Notes: generated by a model from the sequence alone, not told the origin. DNA of 64,000 nucleotides from Oscillatoria sp. PCC 10802 (GCF_000332335.1 NZ_KB235948.1:4286977-4350976), one strand, 5' to 3'; positions 3,281-61,133 are shown, numbered from the stretch's first letter. Translations and numbers: made by a program.

Positions 3281-3490
3281 TCAGTGACTGAGAATGGGGG
3301 TTAATTGCTGCAGTTTGTTTCCCAGCCAATTATAGCCCTTCGCTACGCACTTTGGACAGAGTTCCCCGTAGCTGTCACCCCGCTCGTTGCAGACAATCAC
3401 TCTCGCTTTCCTCATCTGAAACTGCTCCTGGCAGAGCAAGCATGTTTCTTGATTGAAGCTGCCGTCGCACTCAATCTGGAATTGCATCAT
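3281..3490 (-). CDS. Small zinc-ribbon-like protein (two CxxC pairs), hypothetical
   Basis: 69 aa with CLLC..CPKC spacing typical of a zinc ribbon. No homolog recognisable by eye. Confidence 0.35.
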   Translation of the reverse strand: MMQFQIECDGSFNQETCLLCQEQFQMRKARVIVCNERGDSYGELCPKCVAKGYNWLGNKLQQLTPILSH

Positions 3491-4446: not shown

Positions 4447-4478
4447 ACTAATTTCTCACCCCCTCACCCCCTCACCCC
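4447..4478. repeat. Heptanucleotide tandem repeat CCCCTCA x4 (STRR-like)
   Basis: ctcaccccctcaccccctcaccccctcagg. A shorter copy at 15510..15526. Reminiscent of cyanobacterial STRR heptamers. Confidence 0.5.
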
Positions 4479-4581
4479 CTCAGGATTTATAGTCATTAAT
4501 CAAACGCAGATGATAAAAGTGGGACAGTGAGTGGACCCCACACACCCACTCAGCCCAGTGTCCCGCCACTCGGCGAACTCT

Positions 4582-8609: not shown

Positions 8610-9176
8610 TCACGATGTCGGAGCCGGTTCAGAGGCGGGAGTGGCTTCAGTCTGGCTCACGTCAGGAGCGTGTTGCTTGACACCTTCGCTCTCAGCTTCT
8701 AGAGTAGGCGTTGCTTCTCCCCCAGGGATTGCGCCAGAACTCTCACCCAAATTGATCCTCACCACTCGGCGCTGCGCTTCTTGCACCTTAGGCAGAGTCA
8801 GCGTCAAGATGCCATTCTTGTAATCGGCTCCCACCCGATCGTTCTGAACCGGCACAGGCAGGGGAATGGCCCGCTCAAATTTCCCGTAACGGAATTCCGA
8901 CCGGAAATAACCCTTTTCTTCCACCTTGTTTTCGTAGCGGTGTTCGCCGGCAATATAAACGGCGTCCCGAGTGACTCGGATATCCAAATCCTTTGGTTCC
9001 ATCCCAGGGATTTGCGCCCGCAGTAAGAGGTGGTCATCCGTATCTTGGAGTTCAACAGCAGGGGCCCAAGTCATCTCGTACTCGCGCCTGCCGCCTGACA
9101 GTTCCTCAAACAGTTCGTCAAACTGACGGCGTAACGTTTCGATTTCCCTGAAAGGTTGCCAACGTATTAATGCCAT
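8610..9176 (-). CDS. Hsp20/alpha-crystallin small heat-shock protein with Pro/Glu/Ala-rich C-terminal tail
   Basis: 188 aa. The alpha-crystallin domain spans APAVELQDTDDHLLLRAQIPGMEPKDLDIRVTRDAVYIAGEH...GKFERAIPLPVPVQNDRVGADYKNGILTLTLPK. Confidence 0.85.
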   Translation of the reverse strand: MALIRWQPFREIETLRRQFDELFEELSGGRREYEMTWAPAVELQDTDDHLLLRAQIPGMEPKDLDIRVTRDAVYIAGEHRYENKVEEKGYFRSEFRYGKFERAIPLPVPVQNDRVGADYKNGILTLTLPKVQEAQRRVVRINLGESSGAIPGGEATPTLEAESEGVKQHAPDVSQTEATPASEPAPTS

Positions 9177-9942
9177 ACGTTCAGTTCCCTCCGTTCCAGT
9201 TTACAGCTTTTCGGTTTTTGGTTTTTGGGTTTGATAGCTGCCAGTCAAATCGCTGCATATTTTGCTTGTCCGACCGGCATCAAGCGACCAACTGACCCGA
9301 CGCAAGAAAACCCGTTCAGCTGTCATATGAGCTGCGGATAACTCACGCCAATCGCCTCTCTCAAATGAGCCTTACTGGTTACTTCGATCTCAATTTCATT
9401 ATGTCTCGCCGCACAGTGTAGTCAGTGGGGAAAACCCTACTCTGTCAGTGGTATTGCCCGCACCTTTTGTGAGAGACACTGCTGCCGGCAGCTTGATGCC
9501 AATCCCTGGCTATTGTTGGGTTCGGCTAAACGGAAAGTGTTGCTGGAGTCTCACTCCGCCGCATCCTTTTCGATAAGCCCGACAGCCCTTAAGTGCGGCG
9601 ATCTGTGCCGCAACGCACCCTGCAGTGCGGGGAATCTTTCTTGGGAGTTTCATCTGTCCAGCTGCCTGTCTGAAAAAATCAAGGAACAGCTTGCCGGCAG
9701 CTAGAAACCCGGTTTTTTGCTCCCGCCGGCAGATTCAGATTTTTTGCGACCTCTTGCTGACTGGCGCTTACCGGCCTTTTCCTGATTCTGCCGGCACCGT
9801 AACCATTCCTGAGAGAAGTTACAGGAAAGAAATCAAGCTGCAGCGCCTTGCCAGCCGAGCCGGTTTGGTCGATGTAGGGCTTGAACTTGATTCAAAGACG
9901 TGCCCTAATATCGAAATAATATAGAGGAACGCTTACTATAAA

Positions 9943-10102
9943 TATAGCAGTATGCACTTAGGTTAAAACATTAGACATTCAGGGCAGCCAGACGCTGGCC
10001 TACGTCTATATCCCAGTAGTAATATGGGTTAGGACAATAGGAGCCGGAGTGCGGGAGTGCAAAAGAAGCCGAAATGTACGAACCTAAGTGGCTACTGCTA
10101 TA
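9943..10102. repeat. MITE-like dispersed repeat, family A
   Basis: TATAGCAGTATGCACTTAGGTTAAAAC...GTACGAACCTAAGTGGCTACTGCTATA. Inverted copy of 6368..6520. Confidence 0.75.
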
Positions 10103-10609
10103 TCCCCTCAAAACAGAGAACTATGATAAGTTGGCCGCCTAGCAATCACAAAGAATTTCTGTAAATTTATATTTTCTCTTTTCTTGGCGATCTTGGCGTC
10201 TACCCAACGGGCAAGCCGCTGGCGCGTCTATGGCGGTTTCTTTAAAAAAATATTTTCCAGACCCCAATTTAAATCGCTCTATAACTGTACCAAACTGGCT
10301 TTTGTTTCCGGCAGCAACCAGGAAAGGCCGTAGGGGCGAACAGGGGCGGTTTCGCGAGAAATCTCTCGGGGAAGCGGAGGAGATTTATCAACCCGTACCT
10401 ACAGCTGCCGGCTGGACTTTCCTGCTAATTTGGGGGTCAAAGGGAGTCAGGAGGCCATGTTATCCCTCGTTCCCAGCCTGAGGTAGGGAACGACTTCCTA
10501 GAGGCTCTGCCTCCTGTGGGCAGACAGGCAGCATTATTAGCCTAACAGCTAAGTTTCGCTGTGGCGGCCCAGCTCTGATGGGGAAAGAGTAATTTATTTT
10601 ATAGCAGCA

Positions 10610-10765
10610 GTCATATGGGTTAAGACAATAGGAGCTTCGGGAGCGGGGAAGCAAGGGAGGCCGGAATGTACCTTCCCTAAATGCCTACTGCTATATAGAC
10701 GTAGGGCAGGCGTCCCGCCCCCCCTGAAGGTCTAATGTTCTAACCTAAGTGCATACTGCTATATA
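10610..10765. repeat. MITE-like dispersed repeat, family A (CATATGGGTTAAGAC-type ends)
   Basis: TATAGCAGCAGTCATATGGGTTAAGACAATAGG ... internal ACGTAGGGCAGGCGTCCCGCC hairpin ... TTCTAACCTAAGTGCATACTGCTATATA. Confidence 0.75.
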
Positions 10766-12152
10766 GCTTATCTGCCATTCAATAATGTTAGTAAATCTAG
10801 CGTTTCTCATATTAGTGAGGGGCATAGAAACCCGATTTCCGGCCCCTAGCTCATCCAACTGAGAACCGCTATATAAAAATTGCCCGGGGGAGAAAGCGGA
10901 ACTTGGAGTGGCGGGCAGTTATGGCGCATAGATTTTGCACTACCCATCTCTATTCTCTCGTTACCAGGCTCTTCCTGGGAAGGCAATCTGGAGGCTCTGC
11001 CTCCTTTCAACGGAAAAGCAGGTTAAAAGCCGAAGAGCTTATTGACCGCCCTGCCGAACGCACCCGGCGGGTGGCGAGCTCTGTGGTGAGATGGGAAAAA
11101 TCCCAGAGGAGTCACAAGAAACCTGGTTTGTGGGGGTGGCTCAAAGGAGTCAGCTGGGTTGTGGGCGCGCAGGGAGCCGGCTGCCGGTTCTGGGGAACTT
11201 GGAGAGGGGTGCGCCTGCAGCCTGAGGCCAGTGGGGGGGAATTGGGCCTGTAGCAAGTGAATTTATGCCAAATCAGTTAGTTGGTGTTGATTGCCGTTTC
11301 TACTGCGAGACGACCGGCGTTGTTGAGATTGGGGAAATTGCTTGACGTTTTGCACGTTTTGCCCATTGCCGCCGGCAGCATCTCATGCGGCGAATGCGGC
11401 GGCAGGCGCTTGTGGCAAGCTGGCTTTTGTCGTATAGAGCGGTTCTCAGTCACAAAAACCGCACGGAAAGAAACTTCACCCGCCAGCCAATGCAGTTGCT
11501 CCCCTCCCCTGGAAGGGGAGAGGTCAATCTGTACTGCATCACACTAAAAATCCCTGTATGCAGCAGTGGCAGTCAGCTGATGCCCGCAATCAGCCCGAGA
11601 AAAAATCACTTCAGACCGGCAATAGCCAGAACAGCCGAGCTTGCAAAAAGCCGGCGCTACGCACCTGTAATCCCGCGTTGATAAAAGAGTTGTTTGCCGC
11701 ACTCTGTGCGAGTGCGGCTGTGCGCGGAAAGCGCCAGAGGCAATACGGGTGGGAGGAAGCATCAGGTGTGCGGTTGAAGAAACCGCCAGTATAGCAGAGA
11801 GAAGAGCGGATTTCGCATCTTTCTTCATGCGAGCTTTTGCCCACAGAATTAGCGCTCCTCTCTGAGCGGAAAGGGTTGATGTTGTTTGATGCCGCCAGAG
11901 GTGCGCCCAACTTTTCGGTCGGCGACACACTCCCGCCATCCTCCATTGAGCCGCCTGAACTTCTAGGGAACCGGGCGGACATCTCCCATTGCGAATTGTC
12001 GCGGTTCCCTGACAGAGAGTTGCAATGGTTTAGAGGGCCCGTCTGAACGTGGGGTGGGGGGAATTTTTTCATCGCGCTTCCTCCCGGTCGCCCCCCATGA
12101 CAGGCCATCCCCTTAACGGGAAAGGAAAGGGAGGGCAAGGCTCGGGCGCTTC

Positions 12153-33377: not shown

Positions 33378-34223
33378 CTAGGAATGCAGCAGGCACTCTG
33401 CTGAGTGAGCGACTGTCAAATCCAAGATCGGCCTGCCGGTCAGGCAGTGCCAGTGACAGCTAAATAAATCAGGATCTTGCACGCCGATGCTGGCCACCGC
33501 CGGCTCGGCTGGATAGGGCCACAAACGGTCAAAGCAAATCAGCTCCCCAAGAAATCCAAATTGCACTAAATAGGTCGCCGGCGGGGCGTCGAGGGAGCGC
33601 AGCAATCGGTACGCCAATTCGTACAGCTGCTGCCTCCAACTGTCCGAGACGTGCGCCGGCTGCCTGTAAATTTTACCATTTCCGGATATAGCGTTTGTTT
33701 TATCGCCTCGCTCTGTCTCGCTTGAGGCGGATTTTTTGGCTGAGTAATAATCCGGATTGCATATCACTTCCCCGTAGAGGGGCCCCTTTGCGGTGAGGAC
33801 AGCCGGCAGCCAGTGCTCGCCGGCACCCACCGGGTATCCCATTTGCTCGACGTGCCGGCGAAGTCCGGGGACATCGCGGCATGTCTGGTAGGTGCGCTGA
33901 GCGGGAAATGGGACAGTATCCGGTAAATTAAGCGTTAAAGGGCAGAGGAGCGCCTCACCGGCACTGAGGGCGCTGGCAATTCCCGGTTGCGTGAGGGATC
34001 TGGCGGAGAGGGCGCGGACGGGTGCCGGTGGGGCTTTGGGTGAAGCGGAGATAGCCTGCGTGAGAGCAGAAACCATTTGAGCTGTCGCCGGCGATGCCGG
34101 GATGAGTTCGCCAGAGTTCTCCGCTTCAGCATCGATTGCGATCAGGATTTCAGGCATTGCCAAACGAGGGCAAGTTGATAGGAGAGTTAGAAGGGGAGAA
34201 GCTGGGCAGATCCAGCTGGCCAT
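33378..34223 (-). CDS. Hypothetical protein
   Basis: 281 aa. Probable true start at MPEILIAIDAEAEN (about 34157). No recognisable domain by eye. Protein-like composition in the C-terminal half. Confidence 0.4.
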   Translation of the reverse strand: MASWICPASPLLTLLSTCPRLAMPEILIAIDAEAENSGELIPASPATAQMVSALTQAISASPKAPPAPVRALSARSLTQPGIASALSAGEALLCPLTLNLPDTVPFPAQRTYQTCRDVPGLRRHVEQMGYPVGAGEHWLPAVLTAKGPLYGEVICNPDYYSAKKSASSETERGDKTNAISGNGKIYRQPAHVSDSWRQQLYELAYRLLRSLDAPPATYLVQFGFLGELICFDRLWPYPAEPAVASIGVQDPDLFSCHWHCLTGRPILDLTVAHSAECLLHS

Positions 34224-34731
34224 TGCCGCGACGAGTGCGGACGGCGAGCCGGTAGTTGAGACTTTGCAGTTCGGCGTGAAGCTGGCGATTTTCGCGCTGG
34301 AGCATGGCCACTTTCTCTTTCACCGGCTCCATGCGCTCAGCAAACTTCTCGCGATAGACAATCGGCAATTCTTGCACGACTTGTTCCAGCATGCGGCTGC
34401 GGTCAGTCAATTCTTGCACAGACTGGCGCAGCTGGAAAAGCTCGGCATCGCGCTGGCCAACTTGCTCTTGGTAGAAGGCCAGCTGCTGCTCCAGACCTTG
34501 CAGCTGTTCGCGGATGGCCTTCATTTGGGCGCTGTTGCGTTCAGGCGCAGCCGGCTGCTGGGGCGGGACAAAGTTATTATTTTTGCCCTTGACGAGGCGG
34601 AACAGTTCCTGGGACAGCTGCTGGACGAGCTGGTCTTTCATCTGCAGCTCTTCCCGCAGTTGGGCGTTTTCGCTTTCCAGGGATTGCAGGGAGGGGAGTT
34701 CTGTTTGGCTCACGGTGGGTTGCAGCTCCAA
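34150..34731 (-). CDS. Hypothetical coiled-coil protein
   Basis: 193 aa. Heptad-rich QLREELQMKDQLVQQLSQELFRL...LQGLEQQLAFYQEQVGQRDAELFQLRQSVQEL with a Pro/Ser-rich tail. Confidence 0.5.
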   Translation of the reverse strand: MELQPTVSQTELPSLQSLESENAQLREELQMKDQLVQQLSQELFRLVKGKNNNFVPPQQPAAPERNSAQMKAIREQLQGLEQQLAFYQEQVGQRDAELFQLRQSVQELTDRSRMLEQVVQELPIVYREKFAERMEPVKEKVAMLQRENRQLHAELQSLNYRLAVRTRRGNGQLDLPSFSPSNSPINLPSFGNA

Positions 34732-34934: not shown

Positions 34935-35651
34935 TTAGGGGCTTCTGAGGCTCTCGACAAAGGCTGCGTGTGCCGGTGTGGCCAATCCCTGCTGCAGCAC
35001 CGCCAGCACCGCCGCCAAATCGCCGGCGAGCAGTGCGGGGACCCGAAGCCACAAACCGGGGAAAATCTCGCTGCGCAAAACACCGGCTTCATCTGGCTGC
35101 AGGGGGATATATTCGCCTTCTGTGAGTTTGTACCAGTCCACTCGACTGTCGTAAACCCGCCACACAAGATATTCTCGCACTCCATTGCGCCGGTAGGCTG
35201 TGAGTTTGTCGCCGACATCATAGGAAGCGCTGGAGGCGGCTACTTCAGCAATGAATTCCGGTGCGCCTTCCACATAGCCATCATCGCTGATGCGCGACTG
35301 TCCGCCGGCACTGGGTTCCAGTCGCAGGAGGGCATCGGGTTGGGGTTCGTTGTCCACATCCAGGCGCACTGTGGCATTGTCGCCCAACCGAACGCCGGGT
35401 GTGCCGGCAGTGTAGACACCCAACCAAGTAATCACCCGCGCGTGCGGTTCAGCGTGAGGCTCAAAACGTAACGGCGACGCCATATGCACCACTCCTTCAA
35501 TCAGTTCAGCTTTCTTAATGTGCGGCATTGCTTGGTAGCGCCGCTCGAATTCATAGCGAGTCAGGCGATCTCCATTCTCTAGGGGCGGCAATTTTTTCGG
35601 CTCTCCCGCCGGCAATTGCTCTGGGTTGCGCACTAATTTTTCGACTGTCAT
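34935..35651 (-). CDS. Uma2-family (DUF820) restriction-endonuclease-like protein
   Basis: 238 aa. RYEFERRYQAMPHIKKAELIEGVVHMASP...PDALLRLEPSAGG...APEFIAEVAASSASYDVGDKLTAYRRNGVREYLV (PD-(D/E)xK-like core). This family is hugely expanded in cyanobacteria. Confidence 0.8.
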   Translation of the reverse strand: MTVEKLVRNPEQLPAGEPKKLPPLENGDRLTRYEFERRYQAMPHIKKAELIEGVVHMASPLRFEPHAEPHARVITWLGVYTAGTPGVRLGDNATVRLDVDNEPQPDALLRLEPSAGGQSRISDDGYVEGAPEFIAEVAASSASYDVGDKLTAYRRNGVREYLVWRVYDSRVDWYKLTEGEYIPLQPDEAGVLRSEIFPGLWLRVPALLAGDLAAVLAVLQQGLATPAHAAFVESLRSP

Positions 35652-36098: not shown

Positions 36099-36420
36099 TC
36101 CCCTGGCAATTAGCTAGGTTCCAGGCGATTGGAAATCGCGGCTATACAAACGAAGCCCGCCTTCGCGGGCTAAGAGTATATTGAGACTCTCAAAATCTGC
36201 GCGGTTTTCCTCGTTGCGCAGTTTTCCTTGTTCCTTCGTCCCCTGGCAATTAGCTAGGTTCCAGGCGATTGGAAATCGCGGCTATACAAACGAAGCCCGC
36301 CTTCGCGGGCTAAGAGTATATTGAGACTCTCAAAATCTGCGCGGTTTTCCTCGTTGCGCAGTTTTCCTTGTTCCTTCGTCCCCTGGCAATTAGCTAGGTT
36401 CCTGGTGATTGGAAAGAGAC
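36099..36420. repeat. Tandem direct repeat, 140-bp period x2.3, made of MITE family B units (GATTGGAAATCGCGGCTATACAAACGAAGCCCGCCTTCGCGGGCTAAGAG)
   Basis: CCCTGGCAATTAGCTAGGTTCCAGGCGATTGGAAATCGCGGCTATACAAACGAAGCCCGCC... recurs at 36101, 36241 and 36381. Copies 1 and 2 are identical. Confidence 0.85.
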
Positions 36421-36534
36421 TGTTGGCGAATTGATTGGGGGTTTTACCCCACCCCCAACCCCTCCCCGTTAACGGGGAGGGGAGCTTTCTGGTAACCCTT
36501 GTTTTCCCTTTTCCTTGTCTTTTCTGAAAAAAAA

Positions 36535-36720
36535 ACCGCGCAGATATTGAGAGTCTCGATCCACTCTTAGCCCGCGAAGGCGGGCTTCGTCTGTATAGCC
36601 GCGATTTCAATCGCCAGGAACCTGGCCAACTAGCCAGTGGTCTAACCCCTCACGCATTCGCCAACAGCTTCTTTCCAATCGCCGGAGAACTAGCAAAATC
36701 GCCTGGGAACTAGCTGTAAC
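36535..36720. repeat. MITE family B, inverted copy plus fragments
   Basis: CGCGCAGATATTGAGAGTCTC...CTTAGCCCGCGAAGGCGGGCTTCGTCTGTATAGCCGCGATTTCAATCGCC is the reverse complement of the units at 36120-36230. It lies 40 bp from the 3' end of the Gly-zipper/ATPase gene. Confidence 0.8.
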
Positions 36721-36761: not shown

Positions 36762-39125
36762 TCATGCAAACCACCGGCGAATTAACTCCACCTGGAAGCG
36801 GAAACCGTCACCGGCATGTTCAATGAGTTCGCGGCGCAAAAGCAGGTTGAGGGTGCTGTCGAGGCTGTCGGGTTCCTCGCGGGAGAGAAATTGCCGGCTG
36901 GCTGTTGCGCGTTCCCCCTGTGCGGCGATGCAGCGCAATACGGCTAGCCCACCGGCATCTATTTGGTTGCGTTCGATGTCGGAGAAAAAGAAACTGCCAC
37001 TTTCTAAAGCACGCGGCACTGCAGCTTCTATATCGGCTAAGGTGGCAAACCGGCGCACTGAGGGATCTTGCTCGTTTTTGAGAATGACAATCTCGTTGCA
37101 GAGGAGTTGCACCAAAAAGGGGTGATGGCGGGTTAAATCTAGAATTCGCTGCACCGCATCGGGTTCATAGCGCAGGGTAAAATCTTTGATGGGGCGCTCT
37201 ATCAGCTGACGCGCTTCCGGTTCTCTCAGGTAGCTGATATGCACGACTTGCACGTTGATCAGGTAGCTCGCCCAGCGCTGAAATTCCTCTATCGTGTGGG
37301 AGCCGGCGAGCAGCACTTTGAAGCGGGGGCGGTGCTGGATTAAGTGGCGCAGCATTCCCAAAATTCGCTCTTCATCAAAGCGTCCTTTCCTGATGGCGCT
37401 GTCTAAAGCCTCGAATTCATCCAAGGCAAGCAGGGCGGTATTTTGTTCGAGTGTATTTTCGACTTCATCTAACCATTCGTCGAAGCCGGTGAAGGGATCT
37501 GCTGCTAGGGTTTCGCGGGGGAGGGGCGGCAGATTCAATTCGCTCTGTCGCTTGGCTGAGTTTATCATGCCTCTAGCGAGGTTGTAGAGAAAACCTGCCG
37601 GGTCACTCGCCTGTGATGCCGGTCCTTGCAAGTCCACAAACATGGGGATGATGCTGTTGGGGAGGAGGCGTCCGAGGTTGTTGAGAAGGGAGGTTTTGCC
37701 CATGCGCCGCTGACCGTAGAGTAGCAGAGGGGGGCGACGCCGGTCTAGCAGTAATTGCTCGATGCGCTTGCCAATCTCAGTGCCGCTGATATCAGCGGGT
37801 TTGACAAAGATTTCCTGCTGCTCATTCAGGGGGATGCCAGTGATGTAGGGGTTGTCAATCTCTTGGCGGAGTTCAGCTTCTTTTGCCAGTTCGGACACAC
37901 GCTCGGCAAGAATTTGATGCCAGCGGAGGGCGATGGGCTGAAACCGAACCGCGTATTTGTTGCTGCTGCGGGTTAAGTACCGCAACTGAGCTTCTAAACG
38001 GTCTGCAACAGCGCTGAGCGCTAGACGCTTGTTATAAGCACTTTCCTGATTGAGAGCAGCGTCTGCATCCTCGCTGATGCGACTGAAGATGCGGATCACT
38101 GCGCCGGCTGGGCTTTGCAGTTCGCTAATAACCAGACTGCGGTGAGCATTACGGATGGCTTCCACATCCGCACAGTTTTCTAAACTCCGTGCGTCCAGTT
38201 CAATTTGTGCCGCCTGTGCCGCCCAGCGCTGCCGGCTGGTACTCAGATATTCGATGGCAGCTTTTCCCTCAGCTGGGTTGCGCTCCATCACTAAAAGGAG
38301 ATGCTTGTCCAAGTCATATAGGGGAATGCGCTGCCACTCATCCCAAAAGGCAGAATGCCAGCGCAACAGACTGGGTTGAGTGCCTGTTCGTTTTTTGTCC
38401 AGTTGATACAGGAGGATATTCCATACGGTCAGGAAGGGATAGAGTACCGCTGGTAGCCACAAGTTTACAGTTACTCCCACGCCCGACGCCACGCCGAACG
38501 CCACGCCCCACGCCACGCCCGACGCCACGCCCAACGCCACGCCCAACGCCACGCCCAACGCCACGCCCCACGCCACGCCCCACGCCACGCCCCACGCCAC
38601 GCCCCACGCCACGCCCCACGCCACGCCCAACGCCACGCCCGACGCCACGGCCCACGCCACGGCGAACGCCACGCCCGACGCCACGGCCCACGCCACGGCG
38701 AACGCCACGCCGAACGCCACGCCGAACGCCACGCCCCACGCCACGCCCCACGCCACGGCCCACGCCACGCCGAACGCCACGCCCCACGCCACGCCGAACG
38801 CCACGGCCCACGCCACGACACGAAAAATTTTGTCAGCTGGCTCGCCCAACCCCCACAGCACCAATCCGAGAAGCAAGTTAGCCAGGACAGGGGAGAGCAG
38901 GTATCCTTGGAGCCGCAGCCGCCACAGAGCGAAGTTCCGCCAGCGCCCCTGTCTAATCAATAAAATCAGAGAGGAGTTAGGCTTCAAATCGGGGTCAATC
39001 CTGGTTATGTGATTGCGGAAAGCTGTGGGGCGGAAAAAAACCCAGAACATCAGTTGCAGCGTGCCCAGAATTAGGTTGGGGTGCTGCTCGGGTGCGTTGG
39101 TGTAGGCGTTGCGCGGGACGTTCAT
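36762..39125 (-). CDS. Membrane glycine-zipper tetrapeptide-repeat protein fused to C-terminal P-loop AAA+/STAND-like ATPase (novel architecture)
   Basis: 787 aa. Domain order:
- N-terminal conserved domain [39 protein letters not shown], shared with the paralog at 40861..42357.
- Hydrophobic helix [19 protein letters not shown].
- About 29 uninterrupted [G-V-A-(W/F/L/S)] repeats (aa ~141-259; about 35 units when flanking degenerate ones are counted).
- Conserved middle domain [67 protein letters not shown].
- ATPase with Walker [19 protein letters not shown] and Walker [12 protein letters not shown]. Confidence 0.8.
38476..38818. repeat. 12-bp tandem repeat (GCCACGCCCCAC / GCCACGCCGAAC variants), about 29 units, inside the CDS
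   Basis: Runs of identical consecutive units, for example cacgccccacgc at 38560-38620. On the minus strand it encodes [12 protein letters not shown]. Confidence 0.95.
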
Positions 39126-39141
39126 GCTAATTCTTTACCTG

Positions 39142-40233
39142 TCACTCCAACAAATGTTTGAAGCCCTGTATCTGCCGTAAACCTTCTTTGCGCCAGCCGT
39201 CTCCAGTTTCCCCATTTTCCAGACTAACCAATCGTTCTCGACAGAGGATTTGCAGCAGAAGTGGCCATCGTCCGCTCTGGGTGAGAATCCACTCTACATC
39301 CTCATCTGGGAAGGTCATCGGCGAACCGGCAATCAACTCACGCGCCTCTGCCTCTGTCAGCGGCCCCAAAGTCGCGCTATATCCGAAAATGTTGAAAAAC
39401 GGAGAACTGTGCTTGGTGTTGTGAGCCAGTTCAACCGGCGATTCCGGCGCTGCCAGCACAAACGCCAGATTTCCACCGGCATAATTGGTTGCCCAAGATC
39501 GCAAACACTCCCAGAACCCATCATCTAATTCTGGACAGCGTTGCAGTGCGACGCCTATCTCATCCAGCAGGATAACTGTGGGCGAGTGCAGCTTGTCGCC
39601 AACCGCATCCATGAAGCGATCCAAATCGCAGGGGTTGGGCACCGGCACACCCAGCTCCTTTAATATGTAGCTTAGCAACCCCTCCCGGCTGTGCCGGCGG
39701 GTATCTTGGAAGTCTGCGAAAATCCAGCGATAGCGTTGTGGATGCGGCAGCCAGTCGGACTTTTGGCCAGGGCGCAACTGTGCCGGTGGGGTGGTGGTGA
39801 TGTTTTTCAGGTAGTGCAGCAGGGAAGTCTTGCCGGTGCGCTTCTTGCCGATAATGGCGGCGTTTTGCAGGGGGTGGCGTTTCAGCAAGCCGAAAATGCG
39901 TTGAAGTTCGTAGTTGCGCCCAAAGAACTGGCGAGGGTAGGTGATGGGGTTGCCGGTGATGAAGGGCGAGAGTTCCTCAATGGGTGCCGGTGGGGGTTGT
40001 GGATCTTCCTCTTCTTTACAGGCTATTTCTTGCCAGTCAAACCCCAGTTTCTCGCTGAGTTCTACAAAATTCAGATAATCAACGGGTTGGCCACCGAGGA
40101 AGTTCTTGACGGTGGACAGAGATAGTCCTACCGCGTCAGCCAAAGCTGCCTGGCTGGCATGGCCCTTAAGCTTGAGGGCCGATTTTACTTCATTGATGTA
40201 CTCTGGGGCAACCTTGTTCGACCGCGACATCAC
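39142..40233 (-). CDS. HTH (XRE-type) DNA-binding domain fused to AAA+ ATPase domain
   Basis: 363 aa. N-terminal helix-turn-helix SQAALADAVGLSLSTVKNFLGG. Walker A NAAIIGKKRTGKTSLLHYL. Walker B PTVILLDEIGVAL. It ends 16 nt upstream of the Gly-zipper/ATPase gene on the same strand, so a two-gene operon is likely. Confidence 0.8.
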   Translation of the reverse strand: MMSRSNKVAPEYINEVKSALKLKGHASQAALADAVGLSLSTVKNFLGGQPVDYLNFVELSEKLGFDWQEIACKEEEDPQPPPAPIEELSPFITGNPITYPRQFFGRNYELQRIFGLLKRHPLQNAAIIGKKRTGKTSLLHYLKNITTTPPAQLRPGQKSDWLPHPQRYRWIFADFQDTRRHSREGLLSYILKELGVPVPNPCDLDRFMDAVGDKLHSPTVILLDEIGVALQRCPELDDGFWECLRSWATNYAGGNLAFVLAAPESPVELAHNTKHSSPFFNIFGYSATLGPLTEAEARELIAGSPMTFPDEDVEWILTQSGRWPLLLQILCRERLVSLENGETGDGWRKEGLRQIQGFKHLLE

Positions 40234-40386
40234 TGTTCCCAGGAAGGACTATCCGATTATAGAGCTTTTTTCCAGCCCAACCACAAGTCATCCCTAAGTC
40301 ATCTCAAAGTCACCTGTTTCCCACCCCGCATCTGAACCAGCGCTAGGTTTAGATGGAATTGTAGAGCTCAAACCGACTAAAACGCC

Positions 40387-40710
40387 ATGTTGAATGAAAC
40401 CCCAAACACCAACCAGACGTTACCCTCTACTTCGGAACCTGATGACGCTGTTCTGGACATGGAGCGAGAGTTCATGGAAGAACGTTTGCGTCAAGCTCGT
40501 CTCAGCTTCAACCTGACTCTCATACTGACAGCCGTGAGTGCTGTCATCAGTGTTGTGGGTGTCGGACTTTTGTTTGCGGGGAAAGTCCCGGAGGGAAGCG
40601 TCACGACAGCTGGGGGGTTGAGTTGCAACATTGTCAGCTTATTAAGGCTGACTAAGGAAACCAATGACCGGCTGGACAAAATGGCTCAGGAGTTCAAGGA
40701 CGAAGATTGA
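40387..40710 (+). CDS. Small membrane-anchored protein, hypothetical
   Basis: 107 aa. Acidic N-terminus, predicted amphipathic helix, one transmembrane segment LTLILTAVSAVISVVGVGLLFAG, short basic/acidic tail. Divergent from the HTH-ATPase gene and convergent with the paralog. Confidence 0.45.
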   Translation: MLNETPNTNQTLPSTSEPDDAVLDMEREFMEERLRQARLSFNLTLILTAVSAVISVVGVGLLFAGKVPEGSVTTAGGLSCNIVSLLRLTKETNDRLDKMAQEFKDED

Positions 40711-40760
40711 CAAAGTAGGGTGGGTTACGCGTCATCTATTATAGCACATAATGGGTTGGG

Positions 40761-40779
40761 TGAGAAACCGGGTTTCTTG
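40761..40779. terminator. GAGAAACCGGGTTTCTTGG half-palindrome between convergent genes
   Basis: Lies between the stop of 40387..40710 (+) and the stop of 40861..42357 (-). A member of the GAAACCCGGTTTC family. Confidence 0.35.
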
Positions 40780-40860
40780 GGGGCTGGGGGGTGGGTTCCG
40801 CCAAGCGAGATTTTCGCACACAAATCAGGGGTGCTGTCAGGCGGAACCCACCCTACTTAA

Positions 40861-42357
40861 CTACAGGGGGCGCTGTGTGTCCGGTAGCATGTGGGGGCTA
40901 CCGGCTTGTTGGTCAATTTTTGCCGCCAATTCGCGCACACAACCGGCTACAATCTCATACCAGCGAAGAGCAATCGGGTAAAAACGAAGGGCGTCTTTAT
41001 CGCCGCAGGCGGTTAACTCCCGCAAGAAGTTATCCAGATTCTGCGCGACAGCGCTGAGGGCTAGCAGCCGATTAAAGGCACTCTCCTGACTCACACCGGC
41101 ATCTACTTCTTGGCTAATCTGGCTAAAGCTGATCAGCCAAACACCGGCAGGGCTTTCTGAATCACCGGCACCCAAGTTTTGGTGTGCGTTACTGATATCT
41201 CGCACGCCCCCACAATTTTCTAAACTCCTGGCGTCTATTTCAATCTGCGCTGCCTGCGCCGCCCAGCGCTGCCGGCTGGATTTCAGGTAGTTAATTGCGG
41301 CTTTTGCTTCATCGGGATTGCGGTCCAGTATCAAAATCAGGTGTTTGTCTAATTTGGGGAAAGGCAAAAACTGCCACTCATGCCAGAATGCGGAGTGCCG
41401 GTGCAGCAAACTGAATTGACTCCCGGCAAATCGTTTATCCAGTTGATAGAGGAAGATATTCCATACTGTTAATAAAGGATAAAATACTACCGGCAGCCAA
41501 TAGTTGACAGACACTCCCAGCGCGAACGCCACGCCCGAAGATACCCCCGACGACAGGCCAAATGCTAAGCCCAAGGTGACAATCGACGCCAAGCGCCACC
41601 CGACGCGCCACGCGATGTCGGGCGAGACGCCGGGAACTGCGCCCGACACCACGCCCAAGGTGACGCCCAAGGTGAAGCCGGACATCACGCCCAACACCAC
41701 GCCCAAGGCAAGACCGGATGTCAAGCCCGACACCACGCCGGATGACATGTGAAACGCCACGCCCAACCCAACGCCAAACACGACGCCCAACCCGACGCCC
41801 CACCCCACACTCCGCCTGGCGCTGAACCCCGGACTCAAGGTGACGCCCAGGACTGCGCCCGACGCCGCGCCCAACCCGACGCCCCACCCGACGCCCCACG
41901 CGAACCCCAAGGCCAAGTTGAGGGCCACGCCCCACGCCATAGCTAACCCGACGCCCAAGGTGACGGCTAGGGCCACGCCTGAGGCCACGCCCCACTGCAC
42001 GCCCGACGCCACCCACGATGTCAGCCCCCACCACACGCCGGACGCCACGCGCCAGAAAATGATTTCTTTTGATTGGCCGAGTGCGGACAGTATTAAACCC
42101 AGGATTGAAAATGCCAGGAAAGGTAATATTAAATATTCCTGGATTAGCAGTCGCCACAAAGCCCAGTTGCGCCACCGCAAACGGGTGCCCTGTTGCCGAT
42201 TTGGGTCTAAGGCGGGGTCAATGCGGGTGAGGTGGTTGCGCCATGCTGAGGGGCGGAAAAAAAGCCAGAACAGCAGTTGCAAACTGCCCAGAATAATGTT
42301 AGGATGTTGTTCGGGGGCATCTGTGTATGTGCTGGGTGGAATAGTGGGAGAGGTCAT
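40861..42357 (-). CDS. Paralog of Gly-zipper repeat membrane protein, lacking the ATPase domain
   Basis: Start taken at the ATG at 42357 (MTSPTIPPSTYTDAPEQHPNIILGSLQLLFWLFFRP, which aligns with the N-terminus of 36762..39125). Degenerate GVxxGVxx glycine-zipper region of about 190 aa. Middle domain shared almost motif for motif (YWLPVVFYPLLTVWNIFLYQLDKR...[37 protein letters not shown]). Ends before any Walker motifs. The upstream 126 nt of the track ORF lie in a MITE and are rejected. Confidence 0.7.
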   Translation of the reverse strand: MTSPTIPPSTYTDAPEQHPNIILGSLQLLFWLFFRPSAWRNHLTRIDPALDPNRQQGTRLRWRNWALWRLLIQEYLILPFLAFSILGLILSALGQSKEIIFWRVASGVWWGLTSWVASGVQWGVASGVALAVTLGVGLAMAWGVALNLALGFAWGVGWGVGLGAASGAVLGVTLSPGFSARRSVGWGVGLGVVFGVGLGVAFHMSSGVVSGLTSGLALGVVLGVMSGFTLGVTLGVVSGAVPGVSPDIAWRVGWRLASIVTLGLAFGLSSGVSSGVAFALGVSVNYWLPVVFYPLLTVWNIFLYQLDKRFAGSQFSLLHRHSAFWHEWQFLPFPKLDKHLILILDRNPDEAKAAINYLKSSRQRWAAQAAQIEIDARSLENCGGVRDISNAHQNLGAGDSESPAGVWLISFSQISQEVDAGVSQESAFNRLLALSAVAQNLDNFLRELTACGDKDALRFYPIALRWYEIVAGCVRELAAKIDQQAGSPHMLPDTQRPL

Positions 42358-42460
42358 GGATGCTTCTGGTTGATTCACCTTAATAATGAACCGCCAAGAC
42401 GCGCCAGCGGTTTCCCGTAGGGTAAATGCCAAGTACGCCAAGTTTTGCCTGGTTCCGGGC

Positions 42461-42692
42461 GATTGGAAATCGCAGCTATACAAACGAAGTCCGCCTGCGC
42501 GGACTAAGAGATTTTGCTAAGTTCCAGGCGAATGGAATTCGCGGTTCCAGGCGAATGGAATTCGCGGCTATACAAACCAAGTCCGCCTACCCAACGGGCA
42601 CGGGCTTCGCCCAACGCGGACTAAGAAAAGAGGGAAATTCTTGAAACCCGCGCAGGCGGGTTTCGTCTGTATAGTTGCGGTTTCAACCGCCG
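42461..42692. repeat. MITE family B composite copy (direct 30-bp duplication plus inverted terminus)
   Basis: GGTTCCGGGCGATTGGAAATCGCAGCTATACAAACGAAGTCCGCCTGCGCGGACTAAGAG...GTTCCAGGCGAATGGAATTCGCG x2 ... CGCAGGCGGGTTTCGTCTGTATAGTTGCGGTTTCAACCGCC. It flanks the 5' side of the Gly-zipper paralog. Confidence 0.8.
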
Positions 42693-42707: not shown

Positions 42708-44567
42708 CTAAGCGCTGACAAAGGAAACGGCGACGCGAAATCCGAAGCGGTTATTCCGGATTTCTGGCACAACCCTGCAGCGGAAAGCGGAACGGCAATC
42801 CCTGGGGTTGCTGAACCAAGAACCCCCGCGCAGCAACCGGCGATTTTGATTGCCACCGGCATCCCAAACACCCCCATCCGCTAGCGCACCGGCATAATTA
42901 TCATGCCACGGATCGGCGCACCACTCCCAGACATTCCCGTGGGTGTCGTACAAACCAAAAGTGTTGGCTGGAAAACTCCCCACATCTGCTGTCTGTTTGC
43001 TATAGGTTCCTTTGGGTTCAGAAGCGTAAGTATAGTTGCCGTGATAATTAGCTATTTCAGTTGTAACTGTCTCGCCAAAGTGGAAGGGCGCAGTGCGGGT
43101 GTCCTCGCCGGCAGACGCACGACAGGCATATTCCCACTCAGCTTCGCTGGGTAAGCGGTAGTTGCGCCCGGTTACTTGGGAGAGTCGCGCACAAAATTCG
43201 ACAGCATCGTACCAGGATACATTCTCCACCGGCCTGTTTGCGCCTTTGAAATAAGACGGATCGGGATTTAAATCCAGGTACACCTTGGGTAGGGCTGCGA
43301 CAGCTTTCCACTGCGCCTGTGTTACGGCATATTTCCCCATAAAAAAGGGCTGCACTTTTACCAGGTGCTGCGGGCTTTCTTCATTATATCGCCCTGACTC
43401 AGTTTTTGGGGAACCCATCAGGAAAGTTCCCCCTGGAATCGACACCATTTCCAAGGGCACCCCACTGCCAGCGTCTTGGGCAAAGTATTCCGCTTGCCGG
43501 CGCGTGCGGCTGATTTCTCGCCCGTAAGTGTCTACGGTAATAGCGTCGAAGGCAAACTGCTGCAAGGGTGTTTTGCCTGAGGGGGGAGAGGTGCTAACCG
43601 AAAGGGGAACTCCCGACGTTAGCAATCCAATCCCGGCAAAACCGGCAGCTTTAAAAAGTTGCCGGCGTGTCGGGGAATCCTCTTTTATCAGGGAGGAAAC
43701 CGCTTGCAGCGCTTCCACTGCTGACGGGTAGCGCCGGCGGGAGTCACGGCGCACCATTGTGTCTAAAATCTTGGCCAGCTGGGGGCTAACTCGCACTTTG
43801 TTGCGCCAGATAATGTCACCCGTCTGGGGATTTTCTGGCAGTCGCCGGGGAAAGATGCCGGTGAGTGCTTGAATTGCTGTCATTCCCAGAGCGTACACAT
43901 CGCTGCTAAACTGGGGGTTGCCCTTCGCTTGCTCATTTGGCATGTATCCGGGGGTGCCAATCCCAACTGTTAAATTCGCCTGAGTTGGCGCACTCACCAC
44001 TTGGGTGCAGACTTGCTTAATTGCGGCAAAGTCTATCAAGACAATTTTACCATCTTGGCGGCGTCGGATTAAGTTTGCCGGTTTGATATCGCGGTGGATC
44101 GCACCCTCCTGATGCGCGTGAGAGAGGACTGTCAGCACATCCAGCAAAAAGGCAATCACCCGTTCTTCCGTCCACCGGCATCCCGGTTTGATTTCCGCGC
44201 ACAAGTCCTCGCCTTCTATAAAGTCTCGCACGAGATAGAACTCTTGATTCTCCTCGAAGTGAGCTAGGACTCGGGGAATTTGGTCGTGTTCGCCCAATTT
44301 GTGGAGGAGTTTAGCTTCCGTGTCAAATAGGGTTCTGGCAATCTCCAACGCGGACAGATTGTTGGACAGGGGTTTGAGCTGTTTGACGGCGCAGGTAGGA
44401 CTATCTGGCAACTGGGTGTCAGAGGCGAGGAAAGTTGACCCAAATCCCCCGCCTCCCAAGTGTTTGACGATCTTATATCGCCCCGCAATGGTTGTTCCCA
44501 ACATGTGTTTCATGCAGTTCAATGGCAAGTTTCGCTCTAGGATACAGCCTTTGCGCACAAATGTCAA
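42708..44567 (-). CDS. Ser/Thr protein kinase fused to C-terminal formylglycine-generating-enzyme (FGE/sulfatase-modifying factor) domain
   Basis: 619 aa. Kinase subdomains GGGGFGSTFLA, VKQL, HRDIKPANLI, DFAAIK, GTPGYMPNEQ. C-terminal FGE fold (YAVTQAQWKAV...NVSWYDAVEFCARLS...RLPSEAEWEYACRA...RGGSWFSNPRDCRSAFR). Confidence 0.85.
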   Translation of the reverse strand: MTFVRKGCILERNLPLNCMKHMLGTTIAGRYKIVKHLGGGGFGSTFLASDTQLPDSPTCAVKQLKPLSNNLSALEIARTLFDTEAKLLHKLGEHDQIPRVLAHFEENQEFYLVRDFIEGEDLCAEIKPGCRWTEERVIAFLLDVLTVLSHAHQEGAIHRDIKPANLIRRRQDGKIVLIDFAAIKQVCTQVVSAPTQANLTVGIGTPGYMPNEQAKGNPQFSSDVYALGMTAIQALTGIFPRRLPENPQTGDIIWRNKVRVSPQLAKILDTMVRRDSRRRYPSAVEALQAVSSLIKEDSPTRRQLFKAAGFAGIGLLTSGVPLSVSTSPPSGKTPLQQFAFDAITVDTYGREISRTRRQAEYFAQDAGSGVPLEMVSIPGGTFLMGSPKTESGRYNEESPQHLVKVQPFFMGKYAVTQAQWKAVAALPKVYLDLNPDPSYFKGANRPVENVSWYDAVEFCARLSQVTGRNYRLPSEAEWEYACRASAGEDTRTAPFHFGETVTTEIANYHGNYTYASEPKGTYSKQTADVGSFPANTFGLYDTHGNVWEWCADPWHDNYAGALADGGVWDAGGNQNRRLLRGGSWFSNPRDCRSAFRCRVVPEIRNNRFGFRVAVSFVSA

Positions 44568-44730: not shown

Positions 44731-46386
44731 CTACCGGCTCTCAATGCTCAAATCCACATCTGCCGGTGTAAAATATAACTGGGCGCTGCCCTCACTCAAG
44801 GCGGCAATGGCATCCTGTTTCCGCAAAGTATTAAAAATCGCCAGCTTCTCCGATGCTGGCATGCCATTCCCCAACCCGTCAAAGAACGCCCTGACGCGAA
44901 TTGCCTCCGCCTCACCGGCAGTTACCGCCTCGGTTTGCGCGTGCTGCCGGCGCAAGTCCAGCAGCTGTCCCTTCAGCCGCTCAACTTCAATCTCCCCCTC
45001 TATCTCCTTAAGTTTAACATCATTATCGCCCTCCTGTTTCTGCAGCCGGTTCAGCCGGTTTGTCGTCTCCTGGATAATCTCTAGCAAAATCCGCTGCGTG
45101 TCCGGATCTTTGCAAGCGACTGAGCGCACTTCCACCGCATGAAGCGCCACCCCACGCTCGGCATAAAAGCTGTCCTCCACGCCCAGCACCGCCTGTCTGA
45201 CTATGGCATTAAACCCCGCCAGAAATCTTTCCAGCGATACCTGCGATACGGACTGAATAATCAGGCTGCGAGCGTGGGCGCAAATCGCGCCGGTGGTATC
45301 ATCTGTCGCCTGAATCATGGCAGCTACATCCACAATCTGCCAGAAAAACGTCAAGCCGATAATCAATTCTACATTATCCTGCGTTCGCGCTTCAAACTCG
45401 TACCACATGAATTTGGGTCGCCCGTCAATGTGGGTGAAGATGAGGTTTTTCTCGTTTTTGTGCAGCCCGCTGGCCCACCGGAATTCCACCAGCTCCTCAT
45501 ACGGCTGCAAAAAGAAAGACCGTTCATCACCTGTTCCCCGTTTTATGCTATAATCTCCAAAGCGGTCTTTGACGACGACCGTTTCGTGATTCTCCAGCAA
45601 AATGCGCTGGCGCACTTCTACGATTTCTTGATTCGCCTCCGGACAGAAAACCTGCGTCTCTGTTATCAATCGTAGCGTGCCAGTTTGCGTGTCCCGCACC
45701 AGGACTGCAGTGTGTTCGTCAATATTGACCCCTTCCCCGATGCTGCTTAAAATATCTTCGATAATCTCTTCCGCAGGAGTCAGGTAGAAACTCCTCTCGC
45801 CGCGCTCCACGCGAATCATGCCGGTGCTTTTATCAATCACCTTGACATACTGATTTTGCTGCAGTAAAATAGGAGTGCGGAGTTCGACAATTTCCTGATT
45901 GGCAGCTGGAATGAACACTTGGGGGTCGGAAATCAGCTGCAGTTGGCCGGTGGAAATATCTCGCACCAGCACCGCTGTTCCCTCATCAATATTGACACCC
46001 TCCCGCACCGGCTCTAGAATCTGTTCAGTGGGGTTGAGACAGACACTGCGATCTCCTCTTTCCACCCGAATCGCGCCGGTGCGCTTGTCAATTAGCCGGA
46101 TGTACTGGTTGCTTTTCAGGGGGATGGCGGAAAGCTGTTCCAGGATTTCCTCACTCGCCGCCGGGAAGTACAGCTTGGGGCCAAATTCGTTGCGCAACTC
46201 GCCGGTGAGGGTGTCGCGCAGGCGCAGGTATTCGGTTGGCCCAAGGGTTTTGGCCTTGCGGCGCTGCACCCGCCACCAGGGCTGGGAGTAAAACACAGCG
46301 GGCCCATTCACTGTCCACCGGCGCGTGAAGCCCTCGACGAGCAGCTGTTCGTCTTCTTTGAGATAATATATCCAGGGCAAAAACAT
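44731..46386 (-). CDS. Major vault protein (MVP) homolog: MVP repeats, band-7-like shoulder and cap-helix
   Basis: 551 aa. At least 5 MVP repeats of about 45 aa (YIRLIDKRTGAIRVERGDRSVCLNPTEQILE, VKVIDKSTGMIRVERGERSFYLTPAEEIIEDI, KRGTGDERSFFLQPYEELVE; compare eukaryotic MVP KGEKSFFLQPGEQLE). Shoulder region GAICAHARSLIIQSVSQVSLERFLAGFNAIVRQAVLG (compare [37 protein letters not shown]). Then a coiled-coil cap-helix. Confidence 0.8.
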   Translation of the reverse strand: MFLPWIYYLKEDEQLLVEGFTRRWTVNGPAVFYSQPWWRVQRRKAKTLGPTEYLRLRDTLTGELRNEFGPKLYFPAASEEILEQLSAIPLKSNQYIRLIDKRTGAIRVERGDRSVCLNPTEQILEPVREGVNIDEGTAVLVRDISTGQLQLISDPQVFIPAANQEIVELRTPILLQQNQYVKVIDKSTGMIRVERGERSFYLTPAEEIIEDILSSIGEGVNIDEHTAVLVRDTQTGTLRLITETQVFCPEANQEIVEVRQRILLENHETVVVKDRFGDYSIKRGTGDERSFFLQPYEELVEFRWASGLHKNEKNLIFTHIDGRPKFMWYEFEARTQDNVELIIGLTFFWQIVDVAAMIQATDDTTGAICAHARSLIIQSVSQVSLERFLAGFNAIVRQAVLGVEDSFYAERGVALHAVEVRSVACKDPDTQRILLEIIQETTNRLNRLQKQEGDNDVKLKEIEGEIEVERLKGQLLDLRRQHAQTEAVTAGEAEAIRVRAFFDGLGNGMPASEKLAIFNTLRKQDAIAALSEGSAQLYFTPADVDLSIESR

Positions 46387-60991: not shown

Positions 60992-61133
60992 TTCCGGGCG
61001 ATTAGCTACTTTTCGGGCGATTGGAAATCGCGGCTATACAAACAAAGTCCGCCTGCGCGGACTTAAGAGAAGAGCGGCAGCGTAAAACCCCTTGTCTTGC
61101 CGGTTTTATCTGTATAGCTGGGGTTTCAATCGC
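60992..61133. repeat. MITE family B copy
   Basis: TTTCCGGGCGATTAGCTACTTTTCGGGCGATTGGAAATCGCGGCTATACAAACAAAGTCCGCCTGCGCGGACTTAAGAG ... CCGGTTTTATCTGTATAGCTGGGGTTTCAATCGC (inverted terminus). Confidence 0.8.

Follow-up and report, generated by a model that had tools for sequence, protein, structure and literature searches.

In 2021 Kaur, Iyer, Burroughs and Aravind delineated the nSTAND1 clade of NTPases from conflict systems in multicellular bacteria (PMC8195603; Pfam PF20703). The proteins described there combine C-terminal beta-propeller, TPR or FGS sensors with N-terminal EAD, Death-like or enzymatic effectors (PMC8195603). Here we analyse a 64,000-nt stretch of Oscillatoria sp. PCC 10802 (NZ_KB235948.1:4286977-4350976; hereafter the window, within which all coordinates are counted) that carries a pair of adjacent NTPase genes, B and A, together with two further genes, C and D. 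By its sequence, the NTPase of A appears to lie at the edge of the nSTAND1 clade, and the locus is an NLR/STAND-like module with an N-terminal membrane domain. Protein A resembles nSTAND1 proteins in its score against PF20703 (under the cut-off), its PY.G.PL lead-in motif, its filamentous or multicellular hosts and the names that NCBI gives to some family members. Unlike them, the A family has no C-terminal sensor and begins with a polytopic membrane module, an arrangement that departs from the tripartite architecture of the clade.

Avs and other bacterial NLR-like proteins reportedly carry N-terminal effectors too, transmembrane (TM) ones included. In A a possible N-terminal effector is likewise followed by a nucleotide-binding oligomerisation domain (NOD), and oligomerisation would be the natural model of activation; A differs in having no C-terminal sensor and no PADLOC match, in being far more conserved and vertically inherited, and in requiring a second NTPase gene, B. 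The AAA+ core, lid and winged helix of A are shared with the archaeal/bacterial ATPase_2 (PF01637) proteins PAB2304 (2qen) and SSO1545 (2fna) and with ORC/Cdc6. These proteins are soluble, have no membrane or mid domain, are 11-17% identical to A, and their function is unknown or lies in replication. KAP NTPases, membrane-associated P-loop NTPases implicated in conflict, were ruled out as a home for A: their TM helices lie inside the NTPase domain, those of A are N-terminal, and A has no KAP match in Pfam.

A preliminary description of the locus, made from the sequence alone, had given A a conserved N-terminal domain, tetrapeptide repeats, a mid domain and a P-loop ATPase, and this plan was recovered in the same order and at the same positions. 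The features of A and of its neighbour B are as follows.

36762..39125, minus strand: gene A, 787 aa, with N-terminal domain, repeat-bearing membrane region, helical bundle, NTPase and winged helix (open reading frame (ORF) map)
38919..39125, minus strand: A aa 1-69, conserved N-terminal domain with near-invariant columns and one hydrophobic or amphipathic helix
38832..38918, minus strand: A aa 70-98, first clear TM helix (hydropathy scan, maximum Kyte-Doolittle value 1.92)
38472..38819, minus strand: A aa 103-218, coding minisatellite (Tandem Repeats Finder (TRF), unit table)
38400..38471, minus strand: A aa 219-242, conserved last TM helix (hydropathy, near-invariant columns)
37851..38399, minus strand: A aa 243-425, all-helical, family-specific mid domain with HSAFWDEWQ
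36765..37850, minus strand: A aa 426-787, AAA+/STAND-like NTPase with helical lid and C-terminal winged helix
37689..37715, minus strand: A aa 471-479, Walker A GQRRMGKTS (motif positions)
37410..37433, minus strand: A aa 565-572, Walker B LLALDEFE (motif positions)
37107..37127, minus strand: HHPFLVQ of A, GxP-like (motif positions)
39142..40233, minus strand: gene B, 363 aa, helix-turn-helix (HTH, aa ~14-76) and NTPase (ORF map, Pfam)
39823..39849, minus strand: Walker A of B, GKKRTGKTS (motif positions)
39553..39576, minus strand: Walker B of B, VILLDEIG (motif positions)
39250..39273, minus strand: GRWPLLLQ of B (motif positions)

Judged by profile and predicted fold, the C-terminal domain of A is a genuine AAA+/STAND-like NTPase with AAA+ core, lid and winged helix. 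In Pfam it scores 32 bits against AAA_22 (cut-off 27) and 24.5 bits against nSTAND1 (PF20703, cut-off 27.1), a family in which the homolog P0017 reaches 29.3 bits and with which most A homologs have a precomputed match; ATPase_2, AAA_14 and AAA_16 are matched as well, each under its own cut-off. Conservation was judged on an alignment of 40 sequences, in which the Walker A and Walker B columns are invariant, as is the H668-P669 pair of HHPFLVQ. This motif and its counterpart GRWPLLLQ in B we take to be the GxP motif of STAND helical domains, after Leipe et al. 2004. An AlphaFold2 (AF2) model of the full-length protein, for which 40 homologs were supplied, reaches a predicted local distance difference test score (pLDDT) of mostly 70-90 in its confident C-terminal half and draws a helix-helix-hairpin at aa 744-777, the C-terminal winged helix. 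Among PDB folds, Foldseek ranked 2qen and 2fna highest for aa ~430-787, followed by subunits of ORC/Cdc6 and by RuvB (E 3e-6 to 1e-4). The profile check that the preliminary description had proposed for this region therefore came down on the side of an NTPase family, with AAA_22 over its cut-off and ORC and ATPase_2 folds. PDB sequence searches with the NTPase half of A and with B gave nothing useful (matches to neuroserpin were spurious), an exact-sequence look-up of A found no record, and the searches of A-D against PADLOC, PHROGs and NCBIfam yielded only P-loop fragments of use.

Modelled alone, the mid domain of A forms a confident helical bundle (pLDDT 85.8), and when 1.84 billion cluster representatives were searched exhaustively with phmmer, just 323 clusters contained it. 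Nearly all full-length matches listed have the domain ~360 residues from the C-terminus, which is the architecture of A, and the mid domain is therefore private to the A family. The N-terminal domain has no match in Pfam; AF2 places helices at aa 18-31 and 33-43 (pLDDT ~75). In the alignment P79 and L81 of the first TM helix are conserved, and W223, P225, P230 and N236 of the last one are near-invariant.

Protein B, as read from its profile matches, is soluble and joins a putative HTH to an NTPase of the type found in A. It scores 26.3 bits against AAA_22, slightly under the cut-off, is borderline for AAA_16 and below the cut-off for ATPase_2, and aligns with A over the lead-in and the P-loop region (BLASTP E 9e-5). 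For the HTH there are faint matches to HTH_24 (E 4e-4) and to a PHROG named 'transcriptional repressor' (E 5e-3); the HTH seen earlier in the sequence thus finds weak support, and its assignment to the XRE subtype was not borne out. The stop of B and the start of A, on the same strand, are 16 nt apart when read directly, as stated before. A scan for relatives of A with one genome per species gave 391 loci, and neighbourhoods were counted on the 80 retained. B lies upstream of A on the same strand in 70 of these, contig ends cutting most of the others, and in 22 of 25 metagenome loci used as an independent check. The suggested operon partner is therefore near-obligate, and the proposed comparison of neighbourhoods shows the two genes co-occurring across genomes. 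A promoter and terminator scan stayed at background level, and Rfam had no match in the whole window.

Together, B and A make up a two-NTPase module that is conserved in filamentous cyanobacteria and inherited on the chromosome. A has more than 1660 homologs, with a best local identity of 52-73% among the 120 matches listed, in Nostoc, Calothrix, Microcoleus, Coleofasciculus, Scytonema and relatives; nearly all belong to filamentous cyanobacteria, with a few loci in Anaerolineae/Chloroflexota. The closest locus is that of Oscillatoria princeps RMCB-10 (87% identity in the segment that aligns best and 89% across the full protein). The homologs are annotated as 'AAA family ATPase', 'ATP-binding protein' or 'nSTAND1 domain-containing NTPase', and to call the system novel, as had been done, was too strong. 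In the literature searched we found no paper on the A-type architecture; the family is in the databases already and undescribed in that literature. A distant relative of the A NTPase (27% identity), fused C-terminal to an N-6 DNA methylase, was also seen on the Acinetobacter ursingii plasmid NZ_MH220285.1 (L134, 199623-200891), within a type I restriction-like cluster and next to another ATP-binding protein.

Between the two flanking TM helices, A carries a repeat of unusual regularity. TRF reports a period of 12 and 28.4 copies at 38477..38817 (score 486), comprising 28 canonical 12-nt units G[G/C/T]C GTG GCG T[GG/TC/CG/TG] and one degenerate unit, which encode (G/A)-V-A-(W/F/L/S) x 29. The first residue of the unit is G 22 times, A six times and V once, the second is V in all, the third A in 28 and G in one, and the fourth W in 13, F in seven, S in four and L in four. 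Units vary at unit nucleotides 2, 11 and 12 alone, and all differences are non-synonymous. A two-unit pattern has 33 matches inside A, where chance would give 0.02; elsewhere in the window the unit is met solely as two degenerate matches, both in D, a truncated paralog of A. A diversity-generating retroelement target was rejected, there being no template copy in the window and the variable region being a tandem array and not a single variable region. No reverse transcriptase occurs among the neighbour genes examined, the whole window not having been scanned for one.

Across aa 103-242 (140 residues) A holds no charged residue, the mean Kyte-Doolittle value of the repeat is 1.74, and all hydrophobic segments of the protein fall within aa 18-242, N-terminal to the NTPase. 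A would accordingly be a membrane protein, embedding of the repeat in the membrane being the natural reading of its composition. Twenty-nine consecutive units keep (G/A/S)xxx(G/A/S) in register within a hydrophobic segment, the pattern of a transmembrane glycine zipper. What had been described as a continuous GxxxG stands as ~29 uninterrupted period-4 units; residue 1 is not always G, and the array is better called a small-xxx-small zipper. As a helix, it would set the G and A positions of the units ~200 degrees apart, giving two small-residue faces. Transmembrane glycine zippers of the form GxxxGxxxG are said to occur in VacA, MscL and KcsA. Calcyanin is a cyanobacterial protein with GlyZip repeats (PMC8890360). 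The small-xxx-small periodicity is common to these proteins and to A, where it lies in a hydrophobic segment. Known zippers extend over 2-4 turns of a single helix, whereas that of A runs through 116 residues without a loop, is minisatellite-coded and alternates G and A faces; the array has no sequence relationship to known TM zippers or to calcyanin.

The regularity of the repeat proved to be that of a family-wide minisatellite at the DNA level, which the preliminary description had missed. Period-4 glycine is found throughout the family, with a glycine autocorrelation of 0.42 at +4, 0.37 at +8 and ~0.09 at other lags. Among 100 homologs the segment from the N-terminal domain to HSAFW ranges from 145 to 448 aa, the remaining protein staying constant at ~565 aa. 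In 58 of 74 orthologous loci compared at the DNA level, from several cyanobacterial orders, it contains a tandem repeat with a period of 12 nt or a 12-nt multiple, built of the GGCGTGGCGNNN unit or of 24-108-nt multiples of GGCGTGGCGNNN. The arrays of 12-nt period reach 49 copies (most have 10-49), and the core GGCGTGGCG is present in most. Fourteen of the 74 loci have no tandem repeat and keep the gene, the repeat-less lineages having ordinary glycine-rich TM helices and charged loops. Within the segment GGC, GTG and GCG account for 57%, 61% and 45% of the Gly, Val and Ala codons (medians), against 29%, 23% and 12% in the remainder of the same genes, and the median GC content is 0.60 in the segment, 0.44 in the remaining gene and 0.42 in the locus. 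It follows from this codon skew and GC content that the minisatellite itself, beyond the peptide pattern, has persisted across orders. This persistence in the DNA, which runs counter to local codon usage, is new here and is the most unexpected feature of the family.

The comparisons also indicate that the minisatellite turns over through gain, loss and shuffling of units. Between the window and O. princeps the ATPases are 98% identical and the order of the units differs. For this pair the ratio of non-synonymous to synonymous rates (dN/dS) comes to 0.17 (ATPase), 0.44 (N-terminal domain), 0.96 (mid domain), 0.71 (B) and 0.23 (D), all values noisy at a dS of ~0.08. The value of 5.5 in the repeat is inflated by arbitrary repeat alignment and was not relied on, and the 0.96 of the mid domain was likewise set aside. 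The metagenome scan found no relative above 72% identity. In the orthologue P0059 of Microcoleus sp. LAD1_D3 (L055), two T4SS_pilin-like TM hairpins (PF18895, 40.9 bits; aa ~234-287) replace the array, which suggests that the membrane segment is a swappable cassette. A 93%-identical orthologue on a contig of an uncultured Oscillatoria metagenome-assembled genome (MAG; L006, 390-2231, coverage ~3) is without aa ~68-222, comprising the first TM helix and the array, in frame; this is either a true loss of the array or an assembly collapse of the repeat.

Two further aspects concern the neighbourhood. The first is a small gene upstream of B.

40387..40710, plus strand: gene C, 107 aa, a stand-alone CyanoTRADDas_TM two-TM protein (Pfam PF20712), divergent from B

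C scores 67 bits against PF20712 (cut-off 24.3; E 1.5e-18), a family that Pfam and NCBI tie to TRADD-N conflict systems, and its homologs are named 'TRADD-N-associated membrane domain-containing protein'. A C-family gene stands divergent upstream of B in 18 of the 80 loci, from several orders, and also in L087, L091 and L103. The 107-aa protein reported earlier as single-TM is present and recurs; its domain is of the two-TM kind. Like the SLATT and CyanoTRADDas_TM proteins, which are predicted pore-forming two-TM effectors, C is a clear member of PF20712. It differs from CyanoTRADDas_TM in that no TRADD-N gene adjoins it and it is paired with B-A instead; the membrane region of A is unrelated. 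Pfam gave no TRADD-N match in A, B or D, the wider window not having been scanned for TRADD-N, and C has a faint match to the reverse transcriptase-associated SLATT of PADLOC (E 0.03). In 26 Nostoc loci (e.g. L004, 7730-7963, minus strand) a 78-aa protein with one N-terminal TM helix, cluster c7, occupies the position of C; it was ruled out as a C homolog (hhalign probability 5%). At the metagenomic locus L087 (5263-8179), C is followed by B, by an ATPase-less A-type gene (392 aa) and by an unrelated acetyltransferase. As far as gene content can tell, this natural arrangement shows a membrane and mid module able to operate with the NTPase of B alone.

The second is the gap between B and A. The two genes are directly adjacent in only 14 of the 70 loci, the window included; elsewhere (L003-L079, L081) small cassettes lie between them. 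These hold an antitoxin-like gene (clusters c4 and c22, with the common tail YDDPFEP..PLE.WEVLQ) paired with PIN, a GIY-YIG gene, HNH beside a c22-like gene (Calothrix PCC 6303), or a 203-aa protein with a PD...E-A-K motif. Such cassettes may be variable effectors of the B-A system or unrelated selfish insertions.

Taken together, we tentatively favour a conflict or cell-death switch as the role of B-A, a reading to which we give somewhat less than an even chance. Nucleotide-dependent oligomerisation, or hetero-oligomerisation, of the NTPases of A and B would cluster the membrane modules at the N-termini of multiple A subunits. Zipper helices could then pack through their two small-residue faces into an oligomeric membrane assembly, with leak or depolarisation as its effect, and the affected cell would stop growing or kill itself, sparing the remaining filament. 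The logic would be that of a canonical N-terminal effector activated by NOD oligomerisation. The HTH of B would couple the switch to DNA, through sensing or transcriptional control, and C would serve as a facultative two-TM co-effector.

Support for such a switch comes from the domain order of A and the class of its NTPase, from the long uncharged stretch with its family-wide period-4 glycine and from the B-A linkage in genomes and metagenomes alike. It also comes from the recurrent partner C, a member of a TRADD-N conflict family, and from L087, where C accompanies B and a natural ATPase-less A. The gap often holds antitoxin-like genes with PIN, GIY-YIG or HNH nucleases, and the membrane segment is the variable part of A, replaceable by T4SS_pilin-like hairpins. 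The restriction of the family to filamentous cyanobacteria and a few Chloroflexota points the same way, as does the fact that the nSTAND1 clade was delineated from conflict systems in multicellular bacteria (PMC8195603).

Several observations weigh against the switch. PADLOC-DB v2, which served as the defence search, gave no significant match (best E 0.0016, the P-loop only, over 26-41 residues), and the tables and supplement of Kaur et al. 2021 contain no multi-TM plus nSTAND1 architecture (PMC8195603). Neither A nor B has C-terminal sensor repeats, both stopping at the winged helix, and no enzymatic effector was found in either. The AF2 model draws the repeat as a helix at a pLDDT of 29-44 and carries no weight, so that the AlphaFold check proposed earlier told us nothing about this region. 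The ATPase of A is 66-77% identical across orders, and in 36 Nostocales loci an aldehyde dehydrogenase and a thiamine pyrophosphate (TPP) enzyme lie upstream, a synteny that argues for vertical inheritance; no member of the A family was found on PLSDB plasmids or INPHARED phages. This conservation, synteny and chromosomal-only pattern is unlike that of typical defence genes, which are patchy and mobile, and the nuclease cassettes may have inserted on their own as selfish elements.

Conservation, synteny and absence from those plasmids and phages fit a vertically inherited signalling system as well as a conflict system. The main rival is non-lethal signalling from membrane to DNA, in which A would act as a membrane sensor or tether and B as a STAND-type transcription factor with HTH and NOD. 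A would hold or activate B by NOD-NOD contacts, and the output would be gene regulation, for instance in envelope stress, filament integrity or differentiation. B would then resemble AfsR or MalT minus their own sensor. The HTH of B, an NTPase of one type in two proteins encoded 16 nt apart, the strong conservation with Nostocales synteny on chromosomes only and the missing defence-model match all speak for this possibility. We rate it somewhat below the switch; against it, the evidence for the HTH is weak, and a hypervariable membrane segment, a PF20712 partner and toxin or nuclease cassettes would be unexpected around an ordinary regulator.

In a further reading, the array would be a variable recognition or sensor module, as with the repeats of fungal NLRs, and the effectors, C or the gap nucleases, would act in trans. 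Fungal NLRs reportedly bear repeats of high internal conservation. Like A, they join a conserved NOD to near-identical units that shuffle, expand and contract and vary at few positions; their sensors are soluble WD40, ANK or TPR repeats C-terminal to the NOD, whereas the units of A are four residues long, hydrophobic and N-terminal. A strongly conserved NOD beside near-identical, fast-shuffling units whose variation is confined to two residue positions would suit such a module. The same can be said of the exclusively non-synonymous differences at three unit nucleotides, the rearranged unit order against O. princeps despite near-identical ATPases, the DNA unit held across orders against local codon usage, and the copy number of 10 to 49. 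It is hard, however, to see the target of a charge-free array of membrane helices, the loci without a tandem repeat keep the gene, and the apparent dN/dS in the repeats is inflated by misalignment. On balance we consider this role improbable.

We are just as doubtful that the repeat is a neutral, slippage-prone low-complexity anchor or spacer and the gene pair an AAA+ machine with an unrelated job. The wide length tolerance of the segment would be expected of such an anchor, and one low-coverage MAG copy manages without the whole region; some lineages, moreover, have ordinary glycine-rich TM helices with charged loops in its place. Neutrality would sit poorly with a period-4 pattern and a GGCGTGGCG unit that persist across orders in loci of 0.42 GC, and with flanking TM helices and a mid domain that are tightly conserved. 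The repeat may conceivably be beta-rich and amyloid-like instead, with strands in which G and A would share one face and V and X the other.

Beyond C the window holds a second A-like gene and repeats that bracket the block.

40861..42357, minus strand: gene D, 498 aa (from the ATG that matches orthologues), truncated A paralog (alignment with A)
42708..44567, minus strand: Ser/Thr kinase and FGE-sulfatase (FGS) protein upstream of D (Pfam), a possible but uncertain D partner
36099..36610, no strand: dispersed repeat resembling a miniature inverted-repeat transposable element (MITE), on the A side (TRF; 140-bp unit x 2.3 and an inverted copy)
42440..42680, no strand: the same MITE-like repeat on the D side (TRF, pattern search)

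D aligns with A over the N-terminal domain, a degenerate period-4 glycine region (aa ~102-281) and the mid domain, and ends at the 'NPYITG' linker of A, ahead of the ATPase. Its orthologue in O. princeps is 91-92% identical, and the dN/dS of 0.23 speaks against decay of D. The same ratio, and a distance of only 150 nt to C, led us to reject D as the frameshift remnant of a longer, full-length gene. A second copy of the N-terminal and mid domains within 10 kb occurs only in O. princeps and in none of the other 79 loci, with ATPase-less forms of A (390-580 aa) sporadic elsewhere. The ATPase-less paralog of the preliminary description is thus real in its domain content and, with a counterpart near A only in O. 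princeps, is not a conserved component. For a conflict switch, D would be a lineage-specific truncated copy that co-assembles through the shared N-terminal, TM and mid domains or is driven in trans by B, in the manner of natural loci such as L087 that have an ATPase-less A after B. In Calothrix brevissima NIES-22 (L083), two Pkinase+FGE-sulfatase genes (3484-5538 and 8800-10905) flank a D-type gene, and in O. princeps (L001, 2412-6370) two ORFs of similar size (617 and 607 aa), possibly of the same kind, precede D. D and the kinase-FGS gene may form a separate association, or the proximity may be chance, such kinases being common in cyanobacteria.

The MITE-like repeat, which contains GGTTCCAGGCGATTGGAAATCGCGGCTATACAAACGAAGCCCGCCTTCGCGGGCT and a GC-rich hairpin, brackets the A-B-C-D block and has a further copy at 61037..61063; its pattern occurs five times where none would be expected. 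Past the kinase-FGE gene lies a 551-aa protein (44731..46386, minus strand) with matches to the major vault protein (MVP) repeat, MVP shoulder and SPFH/Band-7. Downstream of A, 34935..35651 encodes a putative endonuclease of the Uma2 family and 34150..34731 a coiled-coil protein of 193 aa (both minus strand).

Many NTPase-based systems of death and immunity are predicted in filamentous cyanobacteria, and almost none have been tested. The A-B family is abundant, easily recognised and has a core of two genes, and its hosts include completely sequenced strains of Nostoc and Calothrix. Should A prove to be an ATP-gated membrane effector, bacterial NLR-like proteins would gain a new class of membrane-disrupting N-terminal module. 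A bolder proposal, to which we attach a small chance, is that (GGC GTG GCG NNN)n is a selected hypermutable array that provides populations of filaments with a variable part of an NLR-like switch, either a recognition surface in the membrane or an oligomerisation zipper of tunable length, with the gap as a swappable slot for nuclease effectors. If true, the array would be the prokaryotic equivalent, set within the membrane, of the rapidly shuffling repeat sensors that fungal NLRs carry. Whatever the function, a 12-nt coding minisatellite has been maintained within a transmembrane region through the whole divergence of Nostocales and Oscillatoriales. This unusual persistence, the in-frame length variation and the ~120-residue uninterrupted small-xxx-small zipper make the family of interest for protein evolution and for protein design.

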